IMG/VR virus record: IMGVR_UViG_3300020727_000009
Coordinates: 62,001 to 93,044 of that record
Origin: an uncultured virus (IMG/VR IMGVR_UViG_3300020727_000009)
Taxonomy: Duplodnaviria; Heunggongvirae; Uroviricota; Caudoviricetes
Strand: one strand, 5' to 3'
Length of the DNA: 31,044 nucleotides
The position numbers and the translations under genes were made by a program. The first letter of the stretch is position 1. Every line of letters starts with the position of its first letter. The notes beneath the pieces were generated by a model. It did not search any database and was not told where the DNA came from. It was given only the letters and a program-made list of their open reading frames with translations. Below, piece after piece: positions 12,995-27,397 of this stretch.

Positions 12995-13002
12995 GGAGAA
13001 AC

Positions 13003-13137
13003 ATGTCAGACGAGATTAACCCAGACCTATACGACGAAGACTTCGAAGATGACTTCGAAGATGGTTTTGATGACTTCGACTTCGATGAGGATGACCTTGA
13101 CGAGTTAGAAAACGACATTACTGACCCTATCGAGTAG
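13003..13137 (+). CDS. highly acidic 44-aa protein (not in ORF track)
   Basis: AAGGAG RBS; MSDEINPDLYDEDFEDDFEDGFDDFDFDEDDLDELENDITDPIE. Confidence 0.7.
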   Translation: MSDEINPDLYDEDFEDDFEDGFDDFDFDEDDLDELENDITDPIE

Positions 13138-13161
13138 GCCAAAAAAGGCCAACACAAACAT

Positions 13162-13197
13162 AAAGCCCCCGACTCAATTAAGAGCCGGGGGCTTTTT
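13162..13197. terminator. terminator at the convergent junction (probably bidirectional)
   Basis: AAAGCCCCCG...CGGGGGCTTTTT between convergent gene blocks. Confidence 0.8.
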
Positions 13198-13206
13198 GGT
13201 TATCTA

Positions 13207-13416
13207 TTAGTCAGCTATGTGCTTACCTGAGTTATCGGTTAGCTCATAGTATGTGCTGTCTGATACCTCTGTATCCTCATAGCCATCAATTTGATCGGGG
13301 TATGTCGTACCCTCGACTAGGCCGGTATATATTTCTATTGCGTGGTCCTTATCTTCAGCATCAAAGATAAATGTACCTTGGCGGGTTGTATCAAACTGTA
13401 CACGGAACTTAGGCAC
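13207..13416 (-). CDS. small acidic hypothetical protein (DpnD/PcfM-like pattern)
   Basis: AAGGAG RBS, GTG start; K(F/Y)RV......F.AE...A pattern. Confidence 0.6.
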   Translation of the reverse strand: MPKFRVQFDTTRQGTFIFDAEDKDHAIEIYTGLVEGTTYPDQIDGYEDTEVSDSTYYELTDNSGKHIAD

Positions 13417-13543
13417 TTGTTTCTCCTTTGTATTGGCACTCGCATTGTTCTACATCAAAGTCGTCATCTGATTCCCAGTAAACGACCCCCGTACCATGAC
13501 ACATATTGCAGGTACGGGGTAGTACAGTCTCCATGTCCATCAT
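13409..13543 (-). CDS. small zinc-finger protein (44 aa, not in ORF track)
   Basis: ATGA overlap; CNMCHGTGVVYWESDDDFDVEQCEC. Confidence 0.6.
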   Translation of the reverse strand: MMDMETVLPRTCNMCHGTGVVYWESDDDFDVEQCECQYKGETSA

Positions 13544-13815
13544 GCATCAGCCTTCCATGTTAGCTCACCTGATAGATGGGTTGGCTTACCTAGGTCATTT
13601 GTGGCCCCAACTACCATCTTGATTGACTTGCGTGGTGTGTTCTCAATAATCCACTGCTTCAAGAAACGCTTTGCAGCAGATGGGTTGGCCCATGCAGAAT
13701 GTGTAGGCCTATCAGATAGATGACTCTCAGTGATGGTGAGAAGCCATGCCCCACCCTTCTCTACTGACAAGTTCTTGGTTAGTGTTGCCTTTAGTGTTTT
13801 AGTTACCTTGGCCAT
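13540..13815 (-). CDS. hypothetical basic protein
   Basis: AAGGAGG RBS; 91 aa. Confidence 0.7.
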   Translation of the reverse strand: MAKVTKTLKATLTKNLSVEKGGAWLLTITESHLSDRPTHSAWANPSAAKRFLKQWIIENTPRKSIKMVVGATNDLGKPTHLSGELTWKADA

Positions 13816-13825
13816 GAGGCCCTCC

Positions 13826-14062
13826 TTATAGTTTTATTTGTTGATTGAATCCGACCATCTTCAGGTCCCTTAGTATGTTCTTACCAGCTCTGGGGTCGCC
13901 CAGAGATTGCGGTCCAAAGAAGACTACTTTCTTAGTCCCTGGATTGACTACCTTTACATGGTGTTTGCCGTTGGTCATGCTGACCTCTAATCCGGCTGTC
14001 TCTAAGGCGTCTACCAGTTTCTTTATCTCCTTGGTTTTGATTGTAAACTGTGCAAATTGCAT
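13826..14062 (-). CDS. HicA-like (dsRBD-fold) protein
   Basis: KKLV.ALE..G.EV....G.HH.K...P.....V......D.RA.KNI..DL...GF pattern; ATG 14062 after GGGAGG preferred over 14125. Confidence 0.65.
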   Translation of the reverse strand: MQFAQFTIKTKEIKKLVDALETAGLEVSMTNGKHHVKVVNPGTKKVVFFGPQSLGDPRAGKNILRDLKMVGFNQQIKL

Positions 14063-14069
14063 TACATGC

Positions 14070-14297
14070 TCACCCTCCCTTTTTATTAGTAATGATTTGT
14101 ATGCTTTCGATATATCCCTGCTCACCTGGCCTATTTAGATCCGACTCGTTAGCGATCTTCCACTCCTCTAGGTTTCTATCCCAGAATCTTAGAGACCACT
14201 CTTGATTGTTACGGTCATGCTGGTCGTCTACACGCCATTTCTTTAGTTTAACCCTAAAGGTAAGGCGCAGGTCATATAGGTCACTGTCATCGCTCAT
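14070..14297 (-). CDS. hypothetical protein
   Basis: downstream of the 14317-14345 promoter; AAGGGA RBS. Confidence 0.6.
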   Translation of the reverse strand: MSDDSDLYDLRLTFRVKLKKWRVDDQHDRNNQEWSLRFWDRNLEEWKIANESDLNRPGEQGYIESIQIITNKKGG

Positions 14298-14316
14298 TTA
14301 CTTCCCTTCTGTATAT

Positions 14317-14345
14317 AGTATAACTGGGTTGTTTGTGTTGGTCAA
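14317..14345 (-). promoter_or_regulatory. sigmaA-like promoter containing a copy of the 12-bp motif
   Basis: minus strand TTGACC (14345-14340), 17 bp spacer, TATACT (14322-14317); motif at 14341-14330 overlaps the -35 and spacer. Confidence 0.7.
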
Positions 14346-14518
14346 ACTTCCTCGATGTCACCGGTCTCGATCCAACCGGCCATCTCATCCACAACCCATC
14401 CGTTGAAGCCTTCGCTGATGTGCTCCTCGGCTATGTCTCTGGCATCACTTTGGCTGTCTGCTTCCACCCAAAGATCACTGATAATGTGCTCATGGATAGT
14501 TACTCTGTATTTAGTCAC
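14342..14518 (-). CDS. small acidic protein (DpnD/PcfM-like pattern)
   Basis: GTG 14518 after GGGAG, overlapping the upstream stop; KYRVTIHE....WVEADS..DA. Confidence 0.6.
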   Translation of the reverse strand: MTKYRVTIHEHIISDLWVEADSQSDARDIAEEHISEGFNGWVVDEMAGWIETGDIEEV

Positions 14519-14651
14519 GTAGCTCCCAATCTTCATAGGTTGATTTAACTGCGTCATCTAGGTCAGCTATGAGCATTTCAATCTCATCCCCTGTCCAGTC
14601 TTCTACCATATCTGCTGTTATTGCTGCTTGCCATATGATTTTGTCTGACAT
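14511..14651 (-). CDS. small acidic protein (46 aa, not in ORF track)
   Basis: TAATG overlap; MSDKIIWQAAITADMVEDW... Confidence 0.6.
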   Translation of the reverse strand: MSDKIIWQAAITADMVEDWTGDEIEMLIADLDDAVKSTYEDWELRD

Positions 14652-15106
14652 TAGTTGTCTTCCTCTCTGATTGGTTCTTCATTGCATTCCGCCATTACTT
14701 TGGCGTCCAGATCTTGACGCATTTGGGCAAACATTTCTGGTGCCCAACCTGCATCAAAAATCCTGGTGATTAGCTTAGCCAATGGGTAGTTATTATTAAC
14801 CGCATTGACATAGTCAATCATTAACAGAGCCTTGTCTGAATTGCCACGCTCATACTCAAACACGGCATTGATTGTGATGAACGGCACACTATCCAATGCT
14901 GTGGTGTGCACGGCCATATAACGTACAAAGTCAATAGACTCTTCAAGGGTAAACCTATTAGGCATACCCAAGACCCAGTCCCTGACTGCGAGGTCATTGT
15001 TAACTGCGTAAATGACCTTCTCAAGCCTGTCATCTTGCAGAGGGATAACATTGTTGATGCTCTCCTCAATCAAGGTGATTGCTTCTTTGCGGGTTGTAGT
15101 TATCAT
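14651..15106 (-). CDS. DUF4192-like helical protein
   Basis: L.VRD..LG; YE.G....A; Y.LA.L......G..PE pattern. Confidence 0.6.
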   Translation of the reverse strand: MITTTRKEAITLIEESINNVIPLQDDRLEKVIYAVNNDLAVRDWVLGMPNRFTLEESIDFVRYMAVHTTALDSVPFITINAVFEYERGNSDKALLMIDYVNAVNNNYPLAKLITRIFDAGWAPEMFAQMRQDLDAKVMAECNEEPIREEDN

Positions 15107-15555
15107 TCTTTCTCCTTTTTAGTTGTTCGGAACGTACCTTCCGGGGTTGGCCATTGGTATGGCATGTCGTCAGCTACATCAAAGTCGTAATGCTCTGGAA
15201 GCTTACGCTTGAGGTTAGACTGATGACTCTCATGAAAAGTGCTGGCCCCAAGCCACCAAGGCTTCTTGATTGGCTTTAGGTTGTACTGCTTCATGAGTTC
15301 GATCACTTGCTGCTTGGTATTGTCTACATAGCCACGCTTAGTCCACTCATTACAGATTGTTATGGTGTATTTGGCTAGTAGACCTTCATGCCCCCGCCAC
15401 ATTACAGCGGCCGGATGATTGCGCCATCCCACAGTTAGACCCAGGTTAGCCCTCAGAATCTGCAACGCCTCTACACGTTGCTTGCCGAGTCTCCTATCGT
15501 CTAGAGATTGCGCCACTTGCTTGAAGTCTGCATATGGCAGGAATGTATTTACCAT
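15103..15555 (-). CDS. pyrimidine-dimer DNA glycosylase-like protein (T4 endonuclease V fold, MSMEG_6728-like)
   Basis: NTFLPY, LD.RRLGKQRVEA.QIL, W.NHPA..MWRG, EW..RG and PWWLG...HESH.SNL.RK motifs; start at ATG 15555. Confidence 0.85.
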   Translation of the reverse strand: MVNTFLPYADFKQVAQSLDDRRLGKQRVEALQILRANLGLTVGWRNHPAAVMWRGHEGLLAKYTITICNEWTKRGYVDNTKQQVIELMKQYNLKPIKKPWWLGASTFHESHQSNLKRKLPEHYDFDVADDMPYQWPTPEGTFRTTKKEKE

Positions 15556-15668
15556 CGTTCTCCCGTGTCTTCTCCGAAGTAACAGTCCCAGCACGTTGCT
15601 GTCTGACTGTGAACTACGTACGAGTCGTCTTGGCCCAATACGTTCTTACATAGGTTGCATTTGATCAT
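15549..15668 (-). CDS. small C4 zinc-finger protein (39 aa, not in ORF track)
   Basis: GGAGG RBS, TAATG overlap; CNLC...CWDC. Confidence 0.6.
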   Translation of the reverse strand: MIKCNLCKNVLGQDDSYVVHSQTATCWDCYFGEDTGERW

Positions 15669-15820
15669 TAGTCCTCCAACAGCATAGGGATAAGATCTTC
15701 AGCCCCATGCTTGACTAGTAGGTTGCGTACGATGGCTTTGTTTGTGTTGAGCAGGTCAAGTTCTCTCTGCCTCAACATCTCACTGAGCCATGCTGCCGGA
15801 TCTTCTTGACGAGTGGTCAT
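15668..15820 (-). CDS. small hypothetical protein (50 aa, not in ORF track)
   Basis: ATGA overlap; MTTRQEDPAAWLSEMLRQRELDLLNTNK... Confidence 0.6.
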   Translation of the reverse strand: MTTRQEDPAAWLSEMLRQRELDLLNTNKAIVRNLLVKHGAEDLIPMLLED

Positions 15821-16008
15821 GCTAATGATGCCAACATGATGCCATTATCTTGAGCCCACTCGTGTGCTGGAGTGATAGCTTCGATAGACAGGTTAGCCCC
15901 ACCATCTGCTACCTCGTCTGAGATATGAAGCAGAAACATCTGTGCTGATTCATAGTCATTGAATACCTCGATTAAGGTTTCCGTCAAACTGTCATATATT
16001 GTGTACAT
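15817..16008 (-). CDS. small acidic hypothetical protein
   Basis: TAATG overlap with the VWA gene. Confidence 0.65.
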   Translation of the reverse strand: MYTIYDSLTETLIEVFNDYESAQMFLLHISDEVADGGANLSIEAITPAHEWAQDNGIMLASLA

Positions 16009-17837
16009 TATCTTCCTCTCTTTCTGATTGCTCCGGTGACTACTGATTTAGCAAATGGCAGAAGATCACGGGCCGTAGTGATACGGGCAAAGATCTCCAC
16101 ACCATGTTTAAATGTAGCCTCAGTATAGTTATACCGTTCTCGGTAGAACTCCATGTCTTTGTCACCCATGATTAAGGACATAGCAGTAAGAATGCCACGC
16201 TTACTCATACGTTCGATAACCTCGTCACTTTTAGTGCCAAAGGCGCCGTCAGTGACAATGAACAACATCTTGTTCTTCTTACGAGATGATAGAAGAACTT
16301 GCTCTGCAGCAAGCAAGGCACTATAAGGCTCTGTGCCACCACTGCCGTAGATGAACTTGTAATATGTTTTGTTGGCTAGTTCTGTTCGATTGTAAGCCAA
16401 CTCCGTCTCGTCATCAAACGAGTACACGGTCACCGGAGCGCCGATGCCTTCTAGTGCACGCTTGATAGTCCAAGACGCAATGGATGCGTCACGGTCATTG
16501 CCACCGGACATAGAGCCTGAACGATCCACGAGGATCACAGCCTCCACATCAGTGCCATCCGTGCCTTCATCCCAGCGGTCAAAGGCTTCATCAATCTCAC
16601 ATCCACGAATAACACGCTGGACATTGAGCTTGCCACTAGCCTCTTCCTTGTGCCAAGCAGGCTCGCATTCATCACGTAAGCGTTCTAGTTCACGTGCGAA
16701 CTTACGATAGGTAACCATTGCGTCTGATGGAACAGGCGCTGTGTCATAACGACCACGCTTGATGGTATCGGTATGCTTACCGTCACCACCTACGATTACC
16801 TTTTGCTTGGTTTTTAGATCTTGAAGCACTTCCTTGCTAGACATAACGGTGTCAATAACATCCGTTAGCATGTCGTGCACACTATCTGGTATACCACCTA
16901 GGCTTTCATGATGGCCTGTACCAGGAGTGATTGATGGGGGCGATGCTTCACCATTTTTTGGCTTAGCATTTGCCATATCAAGTGCTTCTTGCTGTGTTGT
17001 TGGTGCAGGTGCTGTGGGTTTGTTTGTGTTGGGCGTAGTTGATTCCGCCTTACCCATACCCTTGGCACGTTCAGCGTCTTTCTCCTGGGCTTTGCCAGGT
17101 TCAGGACGACCTTTACCTACGGCATCACGATCAGTACAGCCGGTCATACCCTTAGGAAGATTCTGTGGGTTAGGCAACTGGCCGATTACCTCATCGTTCC
17201 AACGTTGGATGAGTTCGATTGCTTTGTCGTAATCACGGGGGAATACAAGCAACCTATACTGGTCTACGATGTCAGCAATTACAGGGATGAGCTTAGGCTC
17301 ATAGAACAAGTCCCTGAATGCTTCACGTATCTGAATAGGTAGATACCTGCGACCACGTAGGAGCATATAAGCACCTTCCGCTTCCTCAGGGGTACTACCT
17401 AGATAACGAGCGCACGTTGCAGTTAAGAACGGCGCTACTGATGGATAGCGGGCTACAAGCAACGTCTCGATACGCTGGTCCTCCAGCATATTGGCCGCTC
17501 GCATTAGTCCACGATTGATAACTTCCTTCATGAATACTGTTCCCTTGCGGGGAGTATACAGATGGTGAGCTAGCTCGTGGAAGTTCAGGCCATTGACCTG
17601 AGATAACGCTTCAAGATCAATGTCTTCGATCTCACTAGCGTTGATGTAGATAGCCTGGCCATCAGACCAAGCAGGCGCAGGACCATCAGGCACCACGTGG
17701 ACTAGAACCGGATCACCGGTAATAACCCTGTCAGCTTGTTCGTAGACACGGCATAGAGCGTTTAGTCTGATAGAGCGTAATTGAGATTCCTCATCACGCT
17801 GTTCCATATAACGCTCATTTAGATTGTCGTCAAACAT
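16008..17837 (-). CDS. VWA-domain protein with N-terminal HExxH metallopeptidase-like domain (CobT/NorD-like partner)
   Basis: FHELAH, N.LED.RIE, Pro-rich linker, G.L motif, MIDAS DRSGSM, GGT and VTDG. Confidence 0.9.
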   Translation of the reverse strand: MFDDNLNERYMEQRDEESQLRSIRLNALCRVYEQADRVITGDPVLVHVVPDGPAPAWSDGQAIYINASEIEDIDLEALSQVNGLNFHELAHHLYTPRKGTVFMKEVINRGLMRAANMLEDQRIETLLVARYPSVAPFLTATCARYLGSTPEEAEGAYMLLRGRRYLPIQIREAFRDLFYEPKLIPVIADIVDQYRLLVFPRDYDKAIELIQRWNDEVIGQLPNPQNLPKGMTGCTDRDAVGKGRPEPGKAQEKDAERAKGMGKAESTTPNTNKPTAPAPTTQQEALDMANAKPKNGEASPPSITPGTGHHESLGGIPDSVHDMLTDVIDTVMSSKEVLQDLKTKQKVIVGGDGKHTDTIKRGRYDTAPVPSDAMVTYRKFARELERLRDECEPAWHKEEASGKLNVQRVIRGCEIDEAFDRWDEGTDGTDVEAVILVDRSGSMSGGNDRDASIASWTIKRALEGIGAPVTVYSFDDETELAYNRTELANKTYYKFIYGSGGTEPYSALLAAEQVLLSSRKKNKMLFIVTDGAFGTKSDEVIERMSKRGILTAMSLIMGDKDMEFYRERYNYTEATFKHGVEIFARITTARDLLPFAKSVVTGAIRKRGR

Positions 17838-17848
17838 TTACCACCTCC

Positions 17849-19237
17849 TTAGACCGTCATTGAATTGGCTGTTGCGACCCATGCTTTTAAACGATCAGAT
17901 TGTGTTTGTGTTGATTCTGACTCATCGTTCTTGATCTCCGGTGCAATACCGAAGTCAGATTGGATGTTGTACTGATGTGTCTGGAAGACCAGACGCACAG
18001 ACGCTTGCTCGTCAGAGCCGAAGTGAGCGATAAAGTTCTCAACTGCGAAGTCATAACCAAGCTTGGTTACAAAGTCACTGAACTCGATCAGCATGTTAGT
18101 AGATATTGGAGTATCGTACTGACCCTTAGCTGCTTCAGTACGAAGAGACTTGACTAGTGTACGAAGAGCCTTGCTACTAACAAGCTTCTCCTCGACAGCA
18201 TCGTCGTAATCCCACAGCAACTGAATATCAAAGCGGTTACGCATTGCATAGTTTAGAGGTGTTGTACCTACGTAGTCAGGATTCATAGTCGCAAAGATCG
18301 TAAGATCAGGATGCGCTGTGATTGTCTCGCCCATATGGTCGAGCAGAGTGATAGTACGACGACCATCGGTTAGTGGATAGAGTGTGGTGTAGATTTTAGG
18401 ACTGATGAAGTTCATCTCGTCCAGTAGTAGAACACCACCGTTACGGACAACGTCAGTTACTGGACCGTCAATCCAGCCATAACTACCATTGCCGTCAGGA
18501 ATGAAGCCACCGAACAACTGGCGTGACTCCATAGATGCATTGCCAGATACTGTAGCCATACGCAAGCCACGATCAGCGGCCCACGCTTCTACAGCTGTTG
18601 TCTTACCAGGGCCGGTTGGGCCGTAGATAAGCACGTTGATACCATCAGCACGAGCGGTATCAAAGATAGCAAAGTCTTCAACGTTGTAGACCTTGCGATG
18701 CACATAGCGTTGTGCTAGATGCAATGGTGGAACTGTGGCCAACGACACATTGAATGCAGGAGCGGCTTGTTGGGCCGGAGCATCGAGTGTTTGTGTTGGC
18801 ACGGGAACGACTAGCGGGCTAGTTGTTGCTCGGTTATCTATCACGTATTCCTCCAGTTGGTCATCTCCTACCTCGATTTGAGAGTAGAAGCTTGTTACGA
18901 TATCCATTACATCGGATTTAACTTCTGCAATGGACTTGTTATGTGCGCCTACTGCCTTGGTAGTTAGGACTGGAGAATAGCCCTTGCTATCAATGGCACG
19001 CACATCAGCAGATGTTACGTACACACCTACCGGACGACGAGTTGTTTGCTCGTTATCTTTAACCTCACTTGTTAGTGTGTCTAGGGTTGTTGGCTCCCAC
19101 TTATTGTGAGTGCCCTTAGTACCATCAGTCACACGAGAGTAGAGATTGATGCCGTCCTTGTATGGGACCACCAATATCTGACGACGGTGGTTGCCCATAG
19201 TAGGCTCGTACGATTCAACGAACATTGAGATGTCCAT
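17849..19237 (-). CDS. MoxR-family (CbbQ/NirQ/NorQ/CobS-like) AAA+ ATPase
   Basis: Walker A GPTGPGKT, W.DGP, Walker B LLLDE, ATMNP.Y.GT..LN.A..NRF. Confidence 0.9.
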   Translation of the reverse strand: MDISMFVESYEPTMGNHRRQILVVPYKDGINLYSRVTDGTKGTHNKWEPTTLDTLTSEVKDNEQTTRRPVGVYVTSADVRAIDSKGYSPVLTTKAVGAHNKSIAEVKSDVMDIVTSFYSQIEVGDDQLEEYVIDNRATTSPLVVPVPTQTLDAPAQQAAPAFNVSLATVPPLHLAQRYVHRKVYNVEDFAIFDTARADGINVLIYGPTGPGKTTAVEAWAADRGLRMATVSGNASMESRQLFGGFIPDGNGSYGWIDGPVTDVVRNGGVLLLDEMNFISPKIYTTLYPLTDGRRTITLLDHMGETITAHPDLTIFATMNPDYVGTTPLNYAMRNRFDIQLLWDYDDAVEEKLVSSKALRTLVKSLRTEAAKGQYDTPISTNMLIEFSDFVTKLGYDFAVENFIAHFGSDEQASVRLVFQTHQYNIQSDFGIAPEIKNDESESTQTQSDRLKAWVATANSMTV

Positions 19238-19477
19238 TTATTCCCCTTCTTCTTGCCAGGACGAGTTTAGTCGTTCCTCTAGTATCGTAGCAAGAGCGAA
19301 TGCCGCTTGCCTTTCCCTTGGCCACTCAGTAATGAGTTGGTAAAGGAATCCTTTATCTTCTGCTTTATCTATTACTTTAGATACTTGCAGACATGCGAAG
19401 TCAATGAACTTTTCCATCTCTTCAGGTGGAATCTGATTCATATCTCCGTAGTCTTCATCGCCACATTCGTGACACAT
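19238..19477 (-). CDS. hypothetical protein
   Basis: AAGGAG RBS; N-terminal CHEC. Confidence 0.65.
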   Translation of the reverse strand: MCHECGDEDYGDMNQIPPEEMEKFIDFACLQVSKVIDKAEDKGFLYQLITEWPRERQAAFALATILEERLNSSWQEEGE

Positions 19478-19489
19478 ATGCTCTCCTTA

Positions 19490-19650
19490 GTAAGGGGTTG
19501 TTGGTTGGCTTACCTCCAATGCGTGACAGTGACTAATTGCATGCCGCTCAGAGCCTGTCAAATTACCAACGTGCGTAATTTTCATCTCGATTATTGCGGG
19601 AGCGAACAGTCTATTTTGCGGTGGGTTTAGCCAACCAACAACGGTGTTAC
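19490..19650 (-). ncRNA. candidate structured RNA element closed by a perfect 14-bp inverted repeat
   Basis: GTTGTTGGTTGGCT (19497-19510) / AGCCAACCAACAAC (19629-19642), with internal hairpins. Confidence 0.45.
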
Positions 19651-19962
19651 TTATTCGATAAGATCATCAACCTTATCGGCATAGCTGTCTCCCTCGCCAC
19701 CATCTCCGCCATACATCAGCTCGCTGATGATGCCTTTGCGGTAACGATTGAGCACTATACGTGGGCGGCTATTCTTGAGTTGAGTAGCTGCAGAACAACC
19801 CAGATGGTCGGCATGGAAATACTGATTTGCACGATATCTAAGGTTGTAGATTTGTGTGAATGCTTGAGTCTTACCGATACCATGACCGCAACTATCACAA
19901 CGTATATAGTCTTGGGCGGGCATTTGGTCTGACCAAGGATTAACTGGTCCATTTATTGCCAT
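19651..19962 (-). CDS. hypothetical protein with CxxC...H..C motif
   Basis: AGAAAGGG RBS; CDSC...FH...GC. Confidence 0.6.
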   Translation of the reverse strand: MAINGPVNPWSDQMPAQDYIRCDSCGHGIGKTQAFTQIYNLRYRANQYFHADHLGCSAATQLKNSRPRIVLNRYRKGIISELMYGGDGGEGDSYADKVDDLIE

Positions 19963-20004
19963 TGAACGGTTCCCTTTCTCAGGCTGTTGGTTTGTTTGTG
20001 TTGG

Positions 20005-20469
20005 CTACGCATTAGCAAGCAGCTGGGCTGCCTGTGTTGTGCTAGCACGTAGTAACTCTTTGAAGGTGTCAGAGCTGACGCCTACTGATAGTGACTCTGC
20101 AATGCTCTTGAGCAGAGGACTATTTGTTGATGGATCATTGCGGAGAATAATCTCTCCGGCCAGTTCCGTATCACCTGCAACATAGGACAGAGCGGCTGCA
20201 TACTCGCTAAAGATACGCAGGTTGTCTGTATTGTTTTTATATGACCTAACACCTGCAAGCATTAGTTGCAATGCATACACAGGTGATTCAATCAAGCGAT
20301 TGAGGATTGCATCTCGATAACTGCTGTTGTTACTCGTGTAATTTAGAAAATTACCCGGTAACTGCATGCTGTTGAGAGCAATTACGTGGTCTAGCATATT
20401 CCCAGCAACAGAATGGTCTATCATTCCGTTGATTGGTTCTGCCATGTCATACGCTACTCGATTGGACAT
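20005..20469 (-). CDS. DUF4192-like helical protein (distant paralogue of 14651-15106)
   Basis: YRDAIL, AALSY..GD..LA, P....LL......G pattern. Confidence 0.5.
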   Translation of the reverse strand: MSNRVAYDMAEPINGMIDHSVAGNMLDHVIALNSMQLPGNFLNYTSNNSSYRDAILNRLIESPVYALQLMLAGVRSYKNNTDNLRIFSEYAAALSYVAGDTELAGEIILRNDPSTNSPLLKSIAESLSVGVSSDTFKELLRASTTQAAQLLANA

Positions 20470-21202
20470 GATTGGCTAGTATCCTTTCTAGTTCGGTTAG
20501 TGGTTTCTTTACTATCTTTTTATCCTTTACCCTAAGCGGGGAACCATCCCAGGGTAAAGAAATCTGTTTGTTGCCATAGTCACGCTTGCCTGAACCCTTA
20601 CAGTAATAACACTCTTGGCTTCGTGGTAGTGTGTGGCCTTTCATTTGTCCGTGGGTGCACGCCATAAGGTGAAACCTGTGCCACGATCCATGTGGTGATT
20701 GGGCATCAGGATGTTCGGGGCATGCATACACAGAATCTCCATTAGGTGTGTCATAGAAGTCGCCATCAAAACAAGTAGATGGACTACACCAACTATCTAC
20801 TTTACCTGTTTGTTTACACAGGCGACAACCCTGTATTTTGGATGGGGTACGCCCTGCGTTTTCATCTATAACTTTTATTTGATAGTTACGTTGAAAGACG
20901 TTTACGCCTGTGTACTTCCACATGCGATAGCGAACACCCTGTGACTTCAGTATGTTAAAGCTTCCGCCCCAATAAGTATTGATAACACCACCTTGTAGGG
21001 TGAATGAATCATCACTATGAACAATAATGAACGGGTAATTACCGGCCCAATTAGCCTTGATGTGTAGGTCACCACCGGGAAGCTGAAACTTGTTTGCTTT
21101 CTCGATGGTCATGCCATACTCATAAAGTGGGCGTATATATTTCTTACGCCCGCCCTCTAGATAATCACACCAGTATTGGTATGAACGTAATTTATAACTC
21201 AT
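20447..21202 (-). CDS. Cys-rich protein with DnaJ-like CxxCxGxG zinc-finger motifs
   Basis: CRLCKQTG and CYYCKGSG plus additional Cys/His. Confidence 0.65.
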   Translation of the reverse strand: MSYKLRSYQYWCDYLEGGRKKYIRPLYEYGMTIEKANKFQLPGGDLHIKANWAGNYPFIIVHSDDSFTLQGGVINTYWGGSFNILKSQGVRYRMWKYTGVNVFQRNYQIKVIDENAGRTPSKIQGCRLCKQTGKVDSWCSPSTCFDGDFYDTPNGDSVYACPEHPDAQSPHGSWHRFHLMACTHGQMKGHTLPRSQECYYCKGSGKRDYGNKQISLPWDGSPLRVKDKKIVKKPLTELERILANHVQSSSV

Positions 21203-21510
21203 GGTGCCTCCACTGTTTCAAACAACCCTACAGGAATAGGATCTGTGATGTCAACATATTGAATTTCGATGAGTTGTTCACGCTGGCGCTCGGATGTTTG
21301 TGTTGGTTCCTCATCGAACCACACGGATGTGAGGGGAAGCACAGTTGAATCAGGCTTGAGTAACTTGAGGGCAAACCCCAAGCCATCCATAAGCCCGCTG
21401 TGATATGCACGACTATGCTGATGGTCATCCCAATGCAGGTCATCGTGCTCCTCGAGTATCTGTTGCTCAAGTGTGGCAACAATGTGCTTGCGCTTTATCT
21501 TCTTGCTCAC
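21199..21510 (-). CDS. hypothetical protein
   Basis: GTGA and ATGA overlaps; Y..G..DGL..AL motif. Confidence 0.6.
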   Translation of the reverse strand: MSKKIKRKHIVATLEQQILEEHDDLHWDDHQHSRAYHSGLMDGLGFALKLLKPDSTVLPLTSVWFDEEPTQTSERQREQLIEIQYVDITDPIPVGLFETVEAP

Positions 21511-21779
21511 ACTAGTGCCTTAGCAAATACTGAATAGACCGGTGCCTTGTACACCTTGCCGGTCTTCCAGTGAGGGATTGACTCGTGGTTTGCACGACCA
21601 CCGGCAGCCTTCCAAGCTTCACGCTTGGCATTGCTTGCAGCTGTACGACCATTCACGTGTGTGAAGTTGGTCTTCTCTGGCTGTGCTGGTCCTGGGTTTT
21701 TCTTGCGGGCTTTGCCGTTCTGGCGTTCGCCTGCTGTGTTTGCTTTAGGAGCTGGTGCTCCGCCTTTACCTTTTGCCAT
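21507..21779 (-). CDS. small basic protein
   Basis: Lys/Ala/Gly-rich; AAAGGGG RBS. Confidence 0.65.
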   Translation of the reverse strand: MAKGKGGAPAPKANTAGERQNGKARKKNPGPAQPEKTNFTHVNGRTAASNAKREAWKAAGGRANHESIPHWKTGKVYKAPVYSVFAKALV

Positions 21780-21800
21780 TTTATAGGCCCCTTTCGGAGG

Positions 21801-22019
21801 TTAGTTGATTGTCTCTACACTGCTGTGTAAAGTTGTGGTGCCATCCTCATCCCATAAGAATGAGGCTTCCTTGTAGGTGAGTCCCTTGTGGGCAACTGCA
21901 TCTACAATGAATTCTAATCGTTTGGCCGATTCAAGTAGGGAATCATCAATGAATACGACGTTGCCTCGGCTTGCGGCTTCGGCTTTTATCTGTGAGAGGG
22001 TTGTTTGTGTTGGTTGCAT
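21801..22019 (-). CDS. hypothetical protein
   Basis: TAATG overlap. Confidence 0.6.
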   Translation of the reverse strand: MQPTQTTLSQIKAEAASRGNVVFIDDSLLESAKRLEFIVDAVAHKGLTYKEASFLWDEDGTTTLHSSVETIN

Positions 22020-22285
22020 TATTTATGCCAATCTACTAGATAGGTTGTGCCCCACTTATCGTAGGGAATGTTGATGATGGCCCAAATCTTCCACCATCTA
22101 TATCCTGCTCGTGATAGTTCAGTGCCGTTGTAATAGGCAAAGTCTTCATGATCTAATGCTCGCTCTATCGCAAAACTTGATAGATGATTGCAAGCATTGG
22201 CAAACCACCTGAGTGGCAAGATGTTGGTCTTGTGCTCTGGTGTGGCTGAATACTCAAACTTACCGTGCAAGTCTTCCGGTTCCAT
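22019..22285 (-). CDS. hypothetical protein
   Basis: AGAAAGGAGG RBS. Confidence 0.7.
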   Translation of the reverse strand: MEPEDLHGKFEYSATPEHKTNILPLRWFANACNHLSSFAIERALDHEDFAYYNGTELSRAGYRWWKIWAIINIPYDKWGTTYLVDWHK

Positions 22286-22307
22286 AGTTCCTCCTTTCTA
22301 TTAGTAA

Positions 22308-22335
22308 TGAGCAGTTTATAGAGATGCTCAGCTCT
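22308..22335 (-). other. H-type pseudoknot motif, copy 2
   Basis: AGAG-C-TGAGCA-T-CTCT-ATAAAC-TGCTCA. Confidence 0.6.
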
Positions 22336-22382
22336 TGGCGAAGGAGGTTTTCTGACTACAAGTCATCCCGCACTCCGTGCCG

Positions 22383-22455
22383 TGCCCTCAGCCAGAATCG
22401 AACTGGCAACACTCACCTTAGGACGATGATGTTCTATCCATTGAACTATGAGGGC
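22383..22455 (-). tRNA. tRNA-Arg (anticodon CCU), no encoded CCA
   Basis: acceptor GCCCTCA/TGAGGGC, D arm GTTC/GAAC, anticodon arm TCATC-GTCCTAA-GGTGA, T arm GCCAG-TTCGATT-CTGGC. Confidence 0.9.
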
Positions 22456-22456
22456 G

Positions 22457-22487
22457 TAAGCAGTTTAGCCTTGTCATGCTTAGGACA
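22457..22487 (-). other. H-type pseudoknot motif, copy 1 (1 nt upstream of the tRNA)
   Basis: TGTC-C-TAAGCA-T-GACA-AGGCTAAAC-TGCTTA. Confidence 0.6.
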
Positions 22488-22539
22488 GGAGTTCTTTTAC
22501 CTCAGGAAGAACTTTAGAAACCAACCGGCGTTACCCGTA

Positions 22540-22809
22540 TTAAGGTACTTCGATATCTAACTGGTCAATCAAAGTATCCATAGACATATTGCAATCGGCT
22601 ACAAGGTATGCATACGATGCAATGTTGTGGTCAACAATAGGCCTAATCTCTAAGCCTGCAATTGACAGTGCGTCACGAATCTCACCCGGGTCAATGTCAT
22701 AACCCGCTGTGTTTAGTTCACCACCCAAGCGAGTGGTGTATTCGATTTGGTCTTCAATACGTTGTTTTATTTCAACGTATTTAGGATCAAGTGCAGTTGT
22801 GGACATCAT
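22540..22809 (-). CDS. hypothetical protein
   Basis: ATG 22809 after AAGGGG preferred over 22866. Confidence 0.65.
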   Translation of the reverse strand: MMSTTALDPKYVEIKQRIEDQIEYTTRLGGELNTAGYDIDPGEIRDALSIAGLEIRPIVDHNIASYAYLVADCNMSMDTLIDQLDIEVP

Positions 22810-22816
22810 TGCCCCC

Positions 22817-23269
22817 TTACTTGATGTACTTGAAAAGGTCGTTCTTGATTGAGACCTTGATCTCATCCTCTTCAGCAGCCTTTAATGCAGCGATGTTAGC
22901 CTCTAGTTCAGCAATAGGGCTAACATTTGTGCGGAACTCGGGACGATCCCAAGTAGGACGTGAGTCCTGCGTTGGATAGTCACCAATTGCATCAAACAGC
23001 GCCTTATCTGCTTCGAGGGTAAACCTAACTGTCTCTCCGTGATAATTGCTGTTATGGTATACAGATGTATCCTCATTTACCAATGAGGCTGCATTTTTCT
23101 TAACCCAAGCACGGGCTTTTTTCTCCCACGCTTGACGTCTAGCCTTGAGAGTTGCATCTTGCTTCTCCCAGTCGGCTATCTCTTTTTGCATCTCGTTAAC
23201 CCCAGCCTCTAGTTTCTTTAAGATAACTGAGCGCTTAAACGTTAACGCGGTGGTTGTTGTACTAGCCAT
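22817..23269 (-). CDS. coiled-coil hypothetical protein
   Basis: ATG 23269 after AAAGGAGG. Confidence 0.7.
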   Translation of the reverse strand: MASTTTTALTFKRSVILKKLEAGVNEMQKEIADWEKQDATLKARRQAWEKKARAWVKKNAASLVNEDTSVYHNSNYHGETVRFTLEADKALFDAIGDYPTQDSRPTWDRPEFRTNVSPIAELEANIAALKAAEEDEIKVSIKNDLFKYIK

Positions 23270-23310
23270 TGCTGGCCCTCCTTTGTTGTGTGGTTGTTTA
23301 TGTTGGTGCA

Positions 23311-23605
23311 TACACGGTTTATACTCTCCGTGCGTTGTGAGTTCATTTGCATACTATGCCGCAGTACTCGATAGCAGCACAATGCCGTGTAAGCCCACGA
23401 AGTCTTACGAGGACAAGGGGATCGGCCCGTTGGGTTCAGCCTTAGTAGAGATAGCCGGAACTATTTCGTTCGGAGCCTTAGCTCAACGCCTACCACGCTC
23501 TTTCTTTTGTGCGGATGTGTATGACCCTGGATTACCTATGTAATCCGAAGCCAGCACAGCACAGAGATTTTCATCGGGTGTGCTGTGGAGGCATCGCATT
23601 ACACA
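23311..23605 (-). ncRNA. candidate ~300-nt structured noncoding RNA or leader
   Basis: no minus-strand ORF of note in an otherwise densely packed block; multiple hairpins and a long-range closing helix. Confidence 0.45.
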
Positions 23606-23650
23606 GAGAAACAGGCGGGGGAGCGTACCCTCACACGCTCAACCCCGCCT
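23605..23650 (-). terminator. GC-rich hairpin with weak U tail (terminator-like or processing site)
   Basis: minus strand AGGCGGGG-TT-GAGCGT...ACGCTC-CCCCGCCT-GTTTCTCT. Confidence 0.5.
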
Positions 23651-23662
23651 CCTCACATAAGA

Positions 23663-23806
23663 CTAGTATTCGATGGAGAAGTAGAAGCATCCAATATCAA
23701 TGCCTGCGAATAACTCGTTGATATAGATACTGATAGCAAACTGCTTGCTTATACCAACAGATATCCAGAACTTATTAAACTGCCAGGTCTTGTCTCTAGC
23801 CTTCAT
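23663..23806 (-). CDS. small aromatic/hydrophobic protein (47 aa, not in ORF track)
   Basis: AAGGAGG RBS; MKARDKTWQFNKFWISVG... Confidence 0.6.
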   Translation of the reverse strand: MKARDKTWQFNKFWISVGISKQFAISIYINELFAGIDIGCFYFSIEY

Positions 23807-24044
23807 TGTCCCCTCCTTCCAGTAGGTCTATGTCCACAACGGGTGTTGTGGTACGAATTGTGCGTACGCCTGCAAGTGACCACTCTATGGTCATAGGTTG
23901 GCCAATGAATGGGTGTTTAATGTTGATATATGGTGTCCACTCTAAATCCCTAACTAGGCCAGGGCCTTTGTCTGGGATACGGCGAAATGTGTGGTTGTTT
24001 GTGTTGACCTCATATGTACTATTCTTAGTTATTACTTGGTACAT
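23796..24044 (-). CDS. hypothetical phage protein
   Basis: AAGGAG RBS; T.NS.YE...RR and TTPV motifs. Confidence 0.7.
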   Translation of the reverse strand: MYQVITKNSTYEVNTNNHTFRRIPDKGPGLVRDLEWTPYINIKHPFIGQPMTIEWSLAGVRTIRTTTPVVDIDLLEGGDNEG

Positions 24045-24165
24045 GCCAGTCTCCTTGAGTGATGGCTTGCTGAGTCTTGAGTATATGTACCTCTAGCTGA
24101 AGCCTTGCCAGTACAGCATTCAAGGCATCGTATTTAATCTGTAGAGTAGCTAGGCGTTGCTCCAT
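24025..24165 (-). CDS. small coiled-coil protein (46 aa, not in ORF track)
   Basis: MEQRLATLQIKYDALNAVLARLQLEV; fills the gap after whiB. Confidence 0.5.
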   Translation of the reverse strand: MEQRLATLQIKYDALNAVLARLQLEVHILKTQQAITQGDWHVPSNN

Positions 24166-24175
24166 CTCTTTGCTC

Positions 24176-24520
24176 TTACGCACTTGCTTTACCTCTCATC
24201 TCTCGTTGGTGTTGTAGAACCTTATCTAGGCTCCAATTAGGAGTTCCCCAAGCGGTAACTCCTCTATCTTCTGGGCTAGTACCGCCTTGGATAGCGTGTC
24301 TATCATCTCTGGCGACAACATCCTCAAGGCACCGCATTTTGACAGGGCAATCCGCACAGATTGCTTTTGCACGGTCTGCGTATGCCCTCCGCTCTGAACC
24401 TCGGATAAGGAATGGGTAATAGAATAATTCAGTATCCATCCCGTTGCACTTGGCATCATCTTGCCAAGATAAATCTTCCCACTCTGGGAATGTATGTATG
24501 ACTGTGCTAACACTTGTCAT
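24176..24520 (-). CDS. whiB: WhiB-family Fe-S transcription factor
   Basis: W...A.C...D.ELFY, AKAIC..CPV...CL, IQGGT (variant of GVWGG); ATG 24520 after AAGGAG. Confidence 0.9.
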   Translation of the reverse strand: MTSVSTVIHTFPEWEDLSWQDDAKCNGMDTELFYYPFLIRGSERRAYADRAKAICADCPVKMRCLEDVVARDDRHAIQGGTSPEDRGVTAWGTPNWSLDKVLQHQREMRGKASA

Positions 24521-24630
24521 TCTCCTTCCTCTCTGAAGTCCCAATCTTCTTGGTCAATCTTGTACTGACGCTCGATCAGGATAGCAGCGAACGACAGTAC
24601 GATCAACAGTACGATAACTAATCCAAACAT
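24517..24630 (-). CDS. small membrane protein (37 aa, not in ORF track)
   Basis: AGAAAGGA RBS; MFGLVIVLLIVLSFAAILI; ATGA overlap with whiB. Confidence 0.6.
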   Translation of the reverse strand: MFGLVIVLLIVLSFAAILIERQYKIDQEDWDFREEGE

Positions 24631-24826
24631 AGTGCTTCCTTTCTGTAGAGGGTAAGAGACACACAGGAATACCTTTACGCCAGCACGTGGCGACCTGTGT
24701 ATCTCTCAAAGACTACAGCCTGGAAAAATGGGCGGGGAATGTTTATGTTGGGAGCACTAGCAAGCGGTGTGCCATACATAGATAGTGTCACGCTCAATAT
24801 CTGTATCACGTGGATCAATAGCCATC

Positions 24827-24979
24827 TTACAAGTACCAATACAGATATCTACGCAATTCGTTACGCATCCGGCATCGGGTACAGAACATAGTGCCGGTGT
24901 TGCCATCCAACTCAATGAAGTTGTGTCCTTGGTAATCCTCCATACATTCGTATGGTTCAATCCAGTTCTCTGTGCTCAT
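24827..24979 (-). CDS. small zinc-binding protein (50 aa, not in ORF track)
   Basis: ATGA overlap; C....GH.F...FCTRC. Confidence 0.55.
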   Translation of the reverse strand: MSTENWIEPYECMEDYQGHNFIELDGNTGTMFCTRCRMRNELRRYLYWYL

Positions 24980-25182
24980 CGTCCGGAACTCCTTCCATTG
25001 AGTAAGTCAGGGCTATTTGCCGTGACTATGCCAAAGCCTTGCTTAGGCATAAGGACAAGGTTGTAATTGGATCTAATCTGGTGGTTGGCTTGCGCACTAC
25101 CACAGGGTGGACAGGTGTCCTTACCTATCGCCCATCTCTCAGGGTCAACAGGTGTACCGCACTCAGTGCAGTCCATAGTCAT
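24976..25182 (-). CDS. small C4 zinc-finger protein (DksA/TraR-type spacing)
   Basis: CTECG..V..ER...G...CPPC; AGAAAGGA RBS. Confidence 0.65.
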   Translation of the reverse strand: MTMDCTECGTPVDPERWAIGKDTCPPCGSAQANHQIRSNYNLVLMPKQGFGIVTANSPDLLNGRSSGR

Positions 25183-25218
25183 ATCCTTTCTGAAAAAATC
25201 GGCGGGGACTTTCCCAAC

Positions 25219-25320
25219 CTACTTATTCCTTGTGAACCAGGCATAGAGGAAGAAAGAGGTACTACCCAACCACAAGATAGTGATAGGTAGACCTGATTGC
25301 ATAGGGTCTAAAAGGCTCAT
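25219..25320 (-). CDS. small membrane peptide (33 aa, not in ORF track)
   Basis: AGAAAGGAG RBS; single hydrophobic helix. Confidence 0.5.
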   Translation of the reverse strand: MSLLDPMQSGLPITILWLGSTSFFLYAWFTRNK

Positions 25321-25341
25321 AGTTTGCTCCTTTCTAGAGCG

Positions 25342-27326: not shown

Positions 27327-27331
27327 TCGGC

Positions 27332-27397
27332 TATACTATATACAGGTAGGCCGAATGGCTACCTATCTTAATTAATTTCGTCTAAGGAGAAATTATC
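27332..27397 (+). promoter_or_regulatory. -10 box and two-hairpin 5' leader of hsp20 (ROSE-like)
   Basis: TATACT 27332-27337; hairpins 27344-27364 and 27373-27395, the latter containing the RBS. Confidence 0.5.

Follow-up and report, generated by a model that had tools for sequence, protein, structure and literature searches.

The window, the whole stretch of 31,044 nucleotides analyzed here, covers bases 62001–93044 of the 93,044-bp record of an uncultured lake phage of actinobacteria. Its leftward gene block (13207–26421, minus strand) holds ~33 ORFs and a tRNA-Arg gene; the named genes encode WhiB, a MoxR-type ATPase, a VWA protein, a DenV-like glycosylase and a HicA-like protein. In a scan of 12500–27500 we found one strong terminator-like site, at the convergent junction where the block ends, so a single long operon may span the 12.5-kb block. 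A palindromic operator lies at the start of the block in the phage and its relatives, and is lineage-specific in the same genomes.

A first-pass annotation had described 12 oriented copies of a 12-bp word in this block. We recovered all of them: YCAACAYAAACA has 12 exact matches in the window, each where that annotation had placed it, 11 on the minus strand (14330 to 24740) and one on the plus strand (13149). Shuffled windows contained a mean of 0.01 matches, and 0 of 100 shuffles reached 12. As claimed, there is no copy beyond 13149–24751: neither a further 12-mer nor any match to a reversed control pattern of the word occurs in the whole 93,044-bp record. The 11-mer CAACACAAACA, the commonest k-mer of the phage genome for k = 9–12, has one extra copy, at genome position 7707 (plus strand) within a rightward ORF. 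Neighboring copies in the window are 701–1409 bp apart, in agreement with the gaps first reported, and the median spacing of the word is 1,250 bp. The first ~1.7 kb of the block (24757–26421) contains no copy. The copies and the junction hairpin are as follows, with placement in ORFs according to our own gene calls.

24740–24751, minus strand: copy 1 (CCAACATAAACA), intergenic, 5 nt past the stop of ORF 24757–24960 and 30 nt ahead of a TTG start at 24709.
23996–24007, minus strand: copy 2 (TCAACACAAACA), 17 nt past the stop of ORF 24025–24183; codons 13–16 of ORF 23796–24044, frame NTN.
23295–23306, minus strand: copy 3 (CCAACATAAACA), in a leader ~25 nt upstream of a start codon that follows AAGGAGG; it reads QHKQ under a longer ORF call from 23311.
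22002–22013, minus strand: copy 4, 5 nt past the stop of ORF 22019–22285; codons 3–6 (PTQT) of ORF 21801–22019.
21295–21306, minus strand: copy 5, within ORF 21199–21510 (EEPTQTSE).
19993–20004, minus strand: copy 6, intergenic, 0 nt past the TAG stop of ORF 20005–20469 and 30 nt ahead of a start at 19962.
18788–18799, minus strand: copy 7, codons 147–150 (PTQT) of the MoxR/CobS-like AAA+ ATPase gene, in a variable linker.
17903–17914, minus strand: copy 8 (TCAACACAAACA), codons 442–445 of the ATPase gene, 66 nt ahead of the VWA gene start.
17021–17032, minus strand: copy 9, in a low-complexity linker near codon 270 of the VWA (CobT-like) gene, frame NTN.
15739–15750, minus strand: copy 10 (TCAACACAAACA), within the 50-codon ORF 15668–15820, frame NTN.
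14330–14341, minus strand: copy 11, intergenic, 0 nt past the TGA stop of ORF 14342–14557 and 32 nt ahead of a start at 14297.
13149–13160, plus strand: copy 12, in the opposite orientation, 11 nt past the stop of the last rightward ORF (13003–13137).
13162–13195: terminator hairpin at the convergent junction, GC-rich, with 14 pairs and a T-run on the plus-strand side.

Seven copies had been placed inside ORFs. Five clearly are (21295, 18788, 17903, 17021 and 15739), but those at 22002 and 23996 sit at extreme ORF 5′ ends; the copies at 24740, 23295, 19993 and 14330 are intergenic. The inverted copy does follow the last rightward ORF, as stated, but that ORF has only 44 codons and lies behind the ribonucleotide reductase gene.

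We examined 57 related viral contigs, reaching down to ~50% ATPase identity, and each has the identical word and arrangement. Only two block genes, those for the ATPase and the VWA protein, are universal among these loci, and the copy at 18788, in the ATPase gene, is the best-conserved site of the family; the copy at 14330 is the second most conserved sense site. Most relatives retain the site orthologous to 21295, which in some of them falls between genes and has a hairpin, while 17903 is lineage-specific, other lineages having a nearby copy in a different frame. Strict periodicity is weakened by some relatives, which have only 2–3 sense copies and gaps of >4 kb.

In the ATPase gene, the word's third codon positions are all invariant among relatives, and neighboring invariant residues vary freely at synonymous sites. 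The word is read in three frames across relatives, not two as first thought; at the 17021 position, for example, relative L020 uses a different frame at the same place. Judged by these comparisons, the word is kept by selection on nucleotides rather than peptide, as had been proposed. Among ~350 distinct contexts, eight of its 12 positions never vary or nearly so: single-mismatch variants are absent at positions 2, 4, 6, 8, 9 and 11 and number one or two at positions 5 and 10. No conserved partner element accompanies it on either side. The suggested k-mer count in hosts showed that the word is not abundant there: it matched in 120 of 401 Actinomycetota genomes, never in more than 6 copies and at a level similar to that of the reversed control, and we rejected a host genome-wide word.

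All classes of copy are oriented with transcription. The block contains 230 exact contexts on the sense strand and 39 on the other strand, and these 39 follow genes running the other way, which bears out the idea of a region-wide cis-acting signal oriented with transcription. Placement is also patterned. The word starts 0–2 nt past an ORF-closing stop in 66 of 314 sense contexts compared to 168 of 11,400 random positions, a 14-fold enrichment, and 39 of the 46 opposite-strand contexts lie 0–22 nt past a stop. Overall, 109 of 169 copies are inside ORFs, and 45 of 168 are ≤40 nt upstream of the next start codon.

Terminator hairpins mark the opposite-strand copies. A strong hairpin begins within 0–8 nt downstream (16 nt in L058-type contexts) in 43 of the 46 distinct contexts, and the 45 nt that follow have a median folding energy of −23 kcal/mol compared to −6 kcal/mol for the 314 sense contexts. 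Among the contexts with word and hairpin are strays lying beyond the block (L058, L059, L072 and L073), and in L068 the word-plus-hairpin unit is duplicated. In our phage, the copy at 13149 is 1–4 nt ahead of the junction hairpin, whose stem shows compensatory substitutions among relatives while the adjoining word stays exact. About 10 sense copies in the block are arranged as stop, word, hairpin and ribosome-binding site. The converse association is limited, with a word upstream of only 32 of 397 hairpin candidates in these loci, as called by a permissive finder. Selected RNA accessibility of the word was rejected: real sites (n = 168) and implanted controls (n = 338) had median unpaired probabilities of 0.046 and 0.047, respectively (p = 0.20). 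New here are the reversed copies directly before terminators, the enrichment of sense copies past stops and the eight near-frozen positions. The word is a genuine control signal, confined to one block and to operon ends.

Our best guess, which we hold tentatively, is that the word controls termination and is read while transcription proceeds, like nut or ops, both of which are sense-oriented transcription signals. Untranslated gaps are the usual place of RNA signals such as lambda nutR. The 12–13-nt word, YCAACAYAAACA(A), would act in cis on the transcribed (sense) strand and be read as RNA polymerase passes, in the nascent RNA or the displaced non-template DNA strand, setting the response of the polymerase to termination signals. 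Copies every 0.5–1.8 kb along the leftward operon would let transcription continue past internal hairpins and factor-dependent stops, and those a few nucleotides upstream of the hairpins closing neighboring rightward operons would make those terminators conditional. At what level the word is read, what reads it and which way the effect goes (toward read-through, not termination) are our inferences. The reader may be a family-wide factor, either a host elongation/termination factor of the NusA/NusG kind or an unrecognized core phage protein: the word is undiverged to 50% ATPase identity while the palindromic operator is lineage-specific, which points to a host or core phage factor. As a proposal, RNA-level antitermination or protection, one of the options first listed, best fits the placement past stops and before terminator hairpins. 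Against termination control, copies begin only ~1.7 kb from the start of the block and number as many as 12, where the nut, ops and boxA systems known so far use one or two sites near the promoter. Pfam and PHROGs searches found no N-, Q-, NusG/RfaH-like, KH, S1 or cold-shock proteins in the phage. A mimic of rRNA boxA was rejected, the word bearing no likeness to the rrn boxA regions of five actinobacterial operons; in 0 of 401 genomes did the 3′ part of the word come after a boxA. Other observations that sit poorly with termination control are that the word shows no selection for RNA accessibility, that read-through at the junction would carry polymerase into the opposite operon in antisense, with no obvious use, that some relatives keep so few sense copies and that most hairpin candidates lack the word.

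Of the two main rivals, the first, possible but doubtful, is an RNA cleavage or decay tag: a sequence-specific endoribonuclease of phage or host origin would recognize the word in the transcript. A cut past the stop and before a protective hairpin would open the upstream message to 3′ exonucleases. This would either time the shut-off of the early block and its flanking operons or split polycistronic RNA into units of differing stability. The placement suits this, since a cut past a stop and directly 5′ of a hairpin strips the upstream cistron of its 3′ protection and leaves the downstream one a 5′ hairpin. Eight near-invariant positions are typical of enzyme recognition sites, and the tRNA gene means that the block transcript needs processing anyway. 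The block also encodes a conserved HicA-like protein (13829–14062, minus strand) with an invariant histidine; 12 of 18 family members match Pfam HicA_toxin (best E-value 3.2e-6). However, its match is under the Pfam cut-off (20.3 compared to 27 bits), the PDB HicA3 match has E = 0.83, and the gene was found in only 40 of 57 loci. Cutting at the best-conserved copy, in the middle of the universal ATPase gene, or at that in the VWA gene would destroy those messages, there is no excess RNA accessibility, and a 12-nt single-stranded site exceeds those of known interferases.

The other main rival, which we consider unlikely, is a polar roadblock: a monomeric DNA-binding protein on the asymmetric double-stranded word would halt RNA polymerase or the replisome coming from one direction, which would silence the block or insulate it from antisense transcription and head-on forks. 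Asymmetric 12–13 bp sites in many copies, oriented with transcription, are what PMC6550527 describes for Cluster A stoperators, and the reversed copy at the junction terminator is as an insulator would be. The stoperator analogy first drawn nevertheless fails on several counts: the sites are restricted to one block rather than genome-wide, and the family keeps the word unchanged, whereas the motifs of stoperators drift apart along with their repressors (PMC6550527). No repressor, integrase or partition gene was found in the phage, which so looks virulent. Of 169 copies, 109 lie inside ORFs, a DNA site is not expected so close to stop codons and the 5′ foot of hairpins, and a palindromic operator is already present at the start of the block.

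A DNA-transaction site, whether a programmed single-strand nick of the T5/LUZ24-like type, a strong priming site or a Chi-like recombination signal, is very improbable. The word is exact and strand-specific, its median spacing falls within the range spanned by Okazaki fragment sizes, and the phage encodes a primase, a DnaB-like helicase, a UvsX-like recombinase and a Cas4-like exonuclease. But it is not a genome-wide host word, only 2–3 copies are left in some relatives, and even isolated copies reverse when gene direction does; the tie to stop codons and terminators would be unexplained, which speaks against the nick sites first suggested. A recombination linker was likewise rejected as a reading of the word. 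Least probable of all is a start signal of an unrecognized polymerase or sigma factor (the junction copy would then make a small hairpin RNA), or a re-initiation enhancer upstream of start codons. The 45 start-proximal copies favor such roles, which are opposed by the lack of a partner element, by the 43 opposite-strand contexts that precede a terminator and not a gene, and by a best-kept copy ~950 nt from the next start codon. A phage RNA polymerase promoter was rejected: no such polymerase was found, the DxDGD motif is absent from all phage ORFs above 150 codons, and a 1,097-residue protein without an assigned family resembles a fibre. Pairing with 16S rRNA was rejected too, complementarity being ≤6 contiguous nt.

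Several known systems resemble this one in part. Cluster K mycobacteriophage start-associated sequences likewise consist of a 13-bp oriented word that recurs within an actinobacteriophage genome; they lie a few bases upstream of start codons, resemble ribosome-binding sites and are of unproven function. In contrast, only 45 of 168 copies here are near a start, and terminators come after many copies. T5/LUZ24-like nick sites are, like our word, conserved and strand-specific in virulent phages, and occupy one strand of the genome. The strand of our word instead follows gene direction, and the word is tied to stops and terminators. T7 RNase III sites and T4 RegB sites set message stability and early-gene shut-off and, like the word, are repeated sense-oriented signals between cistrons of early polycistronic RNA. 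The former are hairpins and the latter a 4-nt motif in ribosome-binding sites, whereas the word has 12 nt, no structure and no G, and two long genes retain it as well.

Cluster A mycobacteriophage stoperators (L5 gp71 type) share the asymmetric 12–13 bp, multi-copy, transcription-oriented form and lie mostly outside promoters (PMC6550527); they occur throughout temperate phage genomes and are bound by the immunity repressor, with which the motif diverges. The word instead occupies a ~12-kb block and operon ends, is identical to 50% ATPase identity, has two thirds of its copies in ORFs and adjoins stop codons and terminator hairpins. Lambda nut, rrn boxA (described with its NusA-bound spacer in PMC2724277) and the ops of RfaH differ in having one or two promoter-proximal sites, where here up to 12 run along the operon with none in the first ~1.7 kb. 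The word also bears no likeness to actinobacterial boxA regions, and no N-, Q- or RfaH-like protein was found in the phage. Like our word, they are short, near-invariant, sense-only words upstream of terminators and in untranslated stretches, and they are read by host factors during transcription.

The 12-nt word YCAACAYAAACA matched the window exactly 12 times, 11 times on the minus strand (14330–24751) and once on the plus strand (13149), in each case where the first-pass annotation had placed a copy. Dinucleotide-preserving shuffles of the window gave a mean of 0.01 copies, and 0 of 100 attained 12; allowing one mismatch in the 11-mer brought no extra copies in the window. All 12 copies fall within 11.6 kb of the 93-kb record (93,044 bp, an IMG/VR virus record judged 95% complete), the 12-mer occurs nowhere else in it, and a reversed control pattern has 0 matches in the whole record. 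At each k from 9 to 12, the word is the commonest k-mer of the phage genome. This count over the whole phage agreed with the earlier observation of a motif tiling one gene block: the word is confined to that block and its junction and oriented with the local genes. A near-copy that matches the 11-mer, GCAACACAAACA, lies outside the window at genome 7706–7717 (+), sense-oriented within a rightward ORF downstream of the major head protein gene and its terminator.

This genome belongs to a tailed phage of the contractile kind, with genes for terminase, portal, major head protein, sheath, tube and baseplate; for replication it has a DnaB-like helicase, a loader, a primase, a family A polymerase, a UvsX-like recombinase and resolvases. 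Two WhiB-like proteins point to an actinobacterial host; ribonucleotide reductase was discarded as a host marker, its matches being spread across unrelated taxa. The phage genome gave no recognisable integrase, repressor, RNA polymerase or sliding clamp, and searches with Pfam and/or PHROGs found 0 repressor, integrase or partition genes among 138 ORFs, where unnamed small proteins could conceal one. Transcription is rightward over ~81 kb, the sole exception being the leftward block at window 13207–26421. A terminator scan gave this 12.5-kb block one strong terminator, at its end, where it faces rightward DpdA-like and ribonucleotide reductase genes across a convergent junction with one strong hairpin terminator (13162–13195). 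Sigma-70-like sites were fewer than chance in a consensus scan (12 vs 23 in shuffles). Besides many small unknown ORFs, the block holds the first six of these features:

24176–24544, minus strand, leftward block: WhiB
22382–22455, minus strand, within the leftward block: tRNA-Arg(CCU)
17849–19237, minus strand, leftward block: MoxR/CobS-like AAA+ ATPase
16008–17837, minus strand, leftward block: VWA/CobT-like protein
15103–15594, minus strand, leftward block: DenV-like glycosylase
13829–14062, minus strand, leftward block: HicA-like protein
28033–28105, plus strand, rightward genes past the block: tRNA-Met
16008–19237, 20447–21202 and 13409–13543 (minus strand), 27398–27931 and 29192–29758 (plus strand): protein-quality-control genes

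A tRNA search of the other 62 kb of the genome found none. The load of protein-quality-control genes is unusual, comprising the MoxR-type ATPase and its VWA partner, Hsp20, an HslV-like peptidase and two proteins bearing DnaJ-type CxxCxGxG zinc-finger motifs. Among the rightward genes, one for a DpdA-type queuine tRNA-ribosyltransferase-like protein (9454–10923, +) adjoins a class II ribonucleotide reductase gene (10964–12994, +), and this pairing is a hint of possible 7-deazaguanine modification in the phage DNA.

A search with the ATPase recovered 24 viral contigs at 63–100% identity, and a profile search added 34 more, to about 50% identity. One of these 58 contigs (L009) is identical to the window, leaving 57 relatives. 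In every contig the block has 1 to 12 sense-strand copies of the same 11-mer, and the loci that reach the junction usually have one copy on the other strand. The word is unchanged in 57 of 57 relatives, even where ATPase identity falls to about 50%. In the whole genomes of five relatives, three of which are ~100 kb long with terminal repeats, it is restricted to one 10–13-kb stretch, outside which each genome has the opposite-strand copy of the junction and at most one or two strays. The genome of the window's closest relative (G001) has one stray copy outside the block, at 27212. Gene content in the promoter-proximal half of the block is hypervariable and the word is kept there in every lineage; across the 57 loci, the only universal block genes are those for the ATPase and the VWA protein. 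A megablast comparison of the block with a phage collection gave no match. The stretch, whole or in part, occurs in 20 sequencing runs, all of them DNA runs represented by assembled contigs.

Within the ATPase gene, codons 147–150 read CCA ACA CAA ACA in 21–22 of 22 genes, and a codon alignment shows all their third positions to be invariant. At the neighbouring invariant residues N135, R136, T139, P141, L142 and V146, third-position identity is just 0.32–0.68 in the 22 genes, and the word is followed by residues of a variable linker. Within the VWA gene, the copy occupies the same linker throughout, with NTN as its reading in most relatives but PTQT in L020. The family uses all three reading frames (61:32:16), one more than had been seen in the window. 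Because these third positions are invariant amid synonymous variation and the frame changes, selection is on nucleotides, including synonymous sites; the first-pass annotation had argued for nucleotide rather than peptide selection, and the ATPase genes bear it out.

The sequence of the word is rigid. Among ~350 distinct contexts, single-mismatch variants are nearly limited to four positions: C to T at position 1 (47 sense contexts), A to G at position 3 (6 contexts and 3 on the other strand), C to T at position 7 (16 sense contexts) and A to C at position 12 (10 contexts). Positions 2, 4, 6, 8, 9 and 11 have zero variants, and positions 5 and 10 one or two. A sequence logo shows sharp edges: the upstream flank is uninformative, the 13th position is an A and the downstream stretch is mildly T-poor; the flanks contain no −10 or −35 partner element. 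The position 3 variant, CCGACACAAACA, predominates in one lineage, where the locus L064 has it at 3276, 4679 and 6143 and as the junction copy at 12339 (opposite strand). It occurs as single copies in L012, L046, L060, L062 and L069, and could be used to find a co-varying reader protein.

Exact contexts number 230 on the sense strand and 39 on the opposite strand. Wherever examined, the word is co-oriented with the local genes; where gene direction reverses, at the junction and among stray copies, the strand of the word reverses too. A strong hairpin follows the word almost directly in 43 of 46 distinct opposite-strand contexts. Over the next 45 nt, folding energy has a median of −23 kcal/mol there versus −6 in 314 sense contexts, and 93% versus 11% fold at −12 or below. 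The stems of the junction terminator show compensatory substitutions among relatives, and the adjacent word is exact. Outside the block, strays in L058, L059, L072 and L073 lie where a 351-codon gene heading away from it ends in TAA followed directly by TCAACACAAACA, with a terminator 16 nt past the word; L068 has two word-plus-hairpin units in succession. About ten sense copies within the block have a comparable layout of stop codon, word, 1–6 nt, GC-rich hairpin and ribosome-binding site (for example L025 7935, L028 7920, L032 7912, L043 7917, L074 15802 and L076 8554). Conversely, the word stands upstream of 32 of 397 hairpin candidates, a set produced by a finder that is too permissive.

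Two further features of these hairpins were seen. The top of the junction terminator, CTCAATTAAGAG (13168–13189), is conserved in sequence in many relatives though the lower stem varies by compensatory substitutions, and tops of this type recur in the junction hairpins of L010, L014, L016–L023 and L027; a plain terminator would not need such conservation. In L013, L014, L015 and L017, a second GC-rich, T-tailed hairpin with no word upstream lies within the block on the opposite strand, ~1 kb from the junction. It is turned towards rightward read-through transcripts, for which it may serve as a back-up terminator.

The word is also enriched after stop codons, counted here as those closing an open frame of at least 40 codons. 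It begins 0–2 nt after such a stop in 66 of 314 sense contexts, compared with 168 of 11,400 random positions, a 14-fold difference, and 0–22 nt after one in 39 of 46 opposite-strand contexts. In the window, the copies at 19993 and 14330 follow a stop at 0 nt and those at 24740 and 22002 at 5 nt. Gaps between copies in the first 23 relatives (n = 146) have a minimum of 502 nt and a median of 1,250 nt, and only seven exceed 2,059 nt; the two long genes, for the ATPase and the VWA protein, have one internal copy each. All that several lineages retain is the ATPase copy, the opposite copy and one lying ~4.2–4.8 kb downstream from where the ATPase gene starts. With so few copies in these lineages, regular spacing is not obligatory.

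Any model must cover sense orientation throughout, a rigid sequence, the preference for untranslated nucleotides just after stops and the place at the 5' foot of terminator hairpins. It must also account for tolerance in ORFs, restriction to one long operon plus the ends of the adjoining ones, and a reader common to the family. We infer, rather than demonstrate, that reader and its effect. Our leading interpretation, held tentatively and at less than even confidence, is that the word would be a signal read during transcription and governing termination, working like nut, boxA or ops. That it instead tags the RNA for cleavage or decay by a sequence-specific endoribonuclease seems to us rather unlikely. 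The two differ chiefly in the event that follows recognition, both act on the side of the transcript, and jointly they hold most of our belief. A selected single-stranded RNA context was rejected (median unpaired probability 0.046 at 168 sites versus 0.047 in 338 implants, p = 0.20), a null result that is no argument against nascent RNA, or the non-template strand, being captured.

A reader encoded in the block was rejected because no small block gene is universal, only those for the ATPase and the VWA protein. The HicA-like protein, a basic, conserved protein of 78 residues with one invariant histidine, may be a candidate RNA-binding protein or RNase. Matches to Pfam HicA_toxin, scoring under the cut-off, were obtained for 12 of 18 members of its family. 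The gene is present in 40 of 57 loci, with no obvious HicB partner. A protein atlas gave no lead for two conserved basic block proteins, and Pfam and PHROGs searches of the phage found no NGN or KOW protein (a NusG paralogue).

A polar DNA roadblock, stoperator-like in action, is unlikely. In the excerpted text of PMC6550527, Cluster A stoperators are 13-bp asymmetric sites, up to about 30 of them genome-wide, oriented with transcription and bound by the immunity repressor, and their motifs vary between phages in step with that repressor. Set against this description, the word is similar in being 12–13 nt long, asymmetric, sharp-edged and transcription-oriented, and to that extent the stoperator analogy of the first-pass annotation stands. 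Unlike genome-wide stoperators, however, it is confined to one block in the window phage and in 5 of 5 whole relatives. Stoperators are bound by repressors of temperate phages, whereas repressor, integrase and partition genes were not found among the 138 ORFs here; and they co-diverge with the repressor, whereas the word is frozen, with four varying positions, in a family with core proteins as little as 50% identical. Membership of the stoperator class thus fails on distribution, lifestyle and, most tellingly, co-divergence.

The phage does have a second repeated element, the palindromic 12-mer CTATGATCATAG, with 7 copies in the window (at most one mismatch; 0.07 expected) and 11 in the genome:

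4372, 5881, 9178, 23885, 25832, 25855 and 26683 (12 bp each): copies of the CTATGATCATAG palindrome

The copies at 25832 and 25855 stand side by side upstream of a leftward ORF (25700–25831), and that at 26683 lies in a divergent intergenic region. Loci of 34 of the 57 relatives contain the palindrome, and the most distant ones lack it. This is how a phage-specific operator is expected to behave, and the palindrome probably serves as one for a lineage-specific dimeric regulator acting on early promoters. That the palindrome is lineage-limited while the word is family-wide argues that the asymmetric word has a reader far more conserved than a phage repressor, which would be a host factor or a core function.

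We consider a nick, priming or recombination site very unlikely. Nick sites of the T5/LUZ24 type lie on one strand, whereas the strand of the word follows gene direction, flipping at the junction and at strays, and the nick analogy suggested on first reading fails on this point. A recombination linker or cassette boundary was rejected, since identity breakpoints between the window and L010, its closest relative, are not at word edges. A promoter or translation-linked element is the least probable of all: no polymerase for a phage promoter was found, the flanks are unconserved and 43 of 46 opposite-strand copies lead into a terminator. Pairing with 16S rRNA extends to at most 6 contiguous nt. 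The start-associated sequences of Cluster K phages stand a few bases upstream of start codons; in contrast, the next start lies within 40 nt for 45 of 168 copies of the word and within 10 nt for 4 only.

The transcription-signal interpretation can be taken one step further, though this step is doubtful: the word, an exact 12-nt sequence free of G, might be recognised in nascent RNA or on the non-template strand and so serve as the handle of a transcript-marking system not yet described. The reader would then be a freshwater-actinobacterial host factor or a core phage protein without a known fold family, and read-through, release or cleavage of the polymerase or message would be decided at each marked point. 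If so, a single frozen word would programme a whole operon and the ends of neighbouring operons. To our knowledge, almost nothing has been described of how virulent phages of uncultured freshwater actinobacteria control their genes, and here one exact word is common to a family of ~100-kb phages, kept even at synonymous sites and in hypervariable neighbourhoods. As RNA, single strand or duplex, it offers a direct bait for its reader, with mutants at invariant positions as controls. A host factor would mean a new specificity of the actinobacterial transcription or RNA-decay machinery and a phage protein a new type of regulator; either way, the word would be a compact, portable control element.

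Unlike Chi, KOPS and uptake sequences, the word is not over-represented in Actinomycetota genomes. It has matches in 120 of 401, with a maximum of 6 per genome, about as for the reversed control, so that the host count suggested on first reading revealed no genome-wide host word in this sample, from which the true host may be absent. The sample includes two unpublished genomes, G009 and G056 (one match each), and the outcome is independent of both. As a mimic of rrn boxA or boxC the word was rejected, five actinobacterial rrn operons (leaders and spacers) matching at best 8–10 of its 12 positions. The same operons contain a boxA-like YTTGARAAC, and boxA followed by ACAYAAACA, the 3' part of the word, occurs in 0 of 401 genomes, many of them without rRNA operons. 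A full-text literature search with the letters of the word and its complement gave nothing relevant among the matches listed, which were primers or unrelated sequences. We know of no antitermination, stoperator or processing system with such a grammar. The comparison with nut and boxA sites, which stand in untranslated RNA ahead of terminators, is mixed: the word in its sense orientation precedes terminators in 43 of 46 opposite-strand and about 10 sense contexts and is enriched after stops, but 109 of 169 copies lie in ORFs. Like the ops site of RfaH, it is a nearly invariant 12-nt word, eight of its positions almost without variants, in a long operon (12.5 kb); unlike that single promoter-proximal site, it recurs in 2–12 copies per block, the first ~1.7 kb in.
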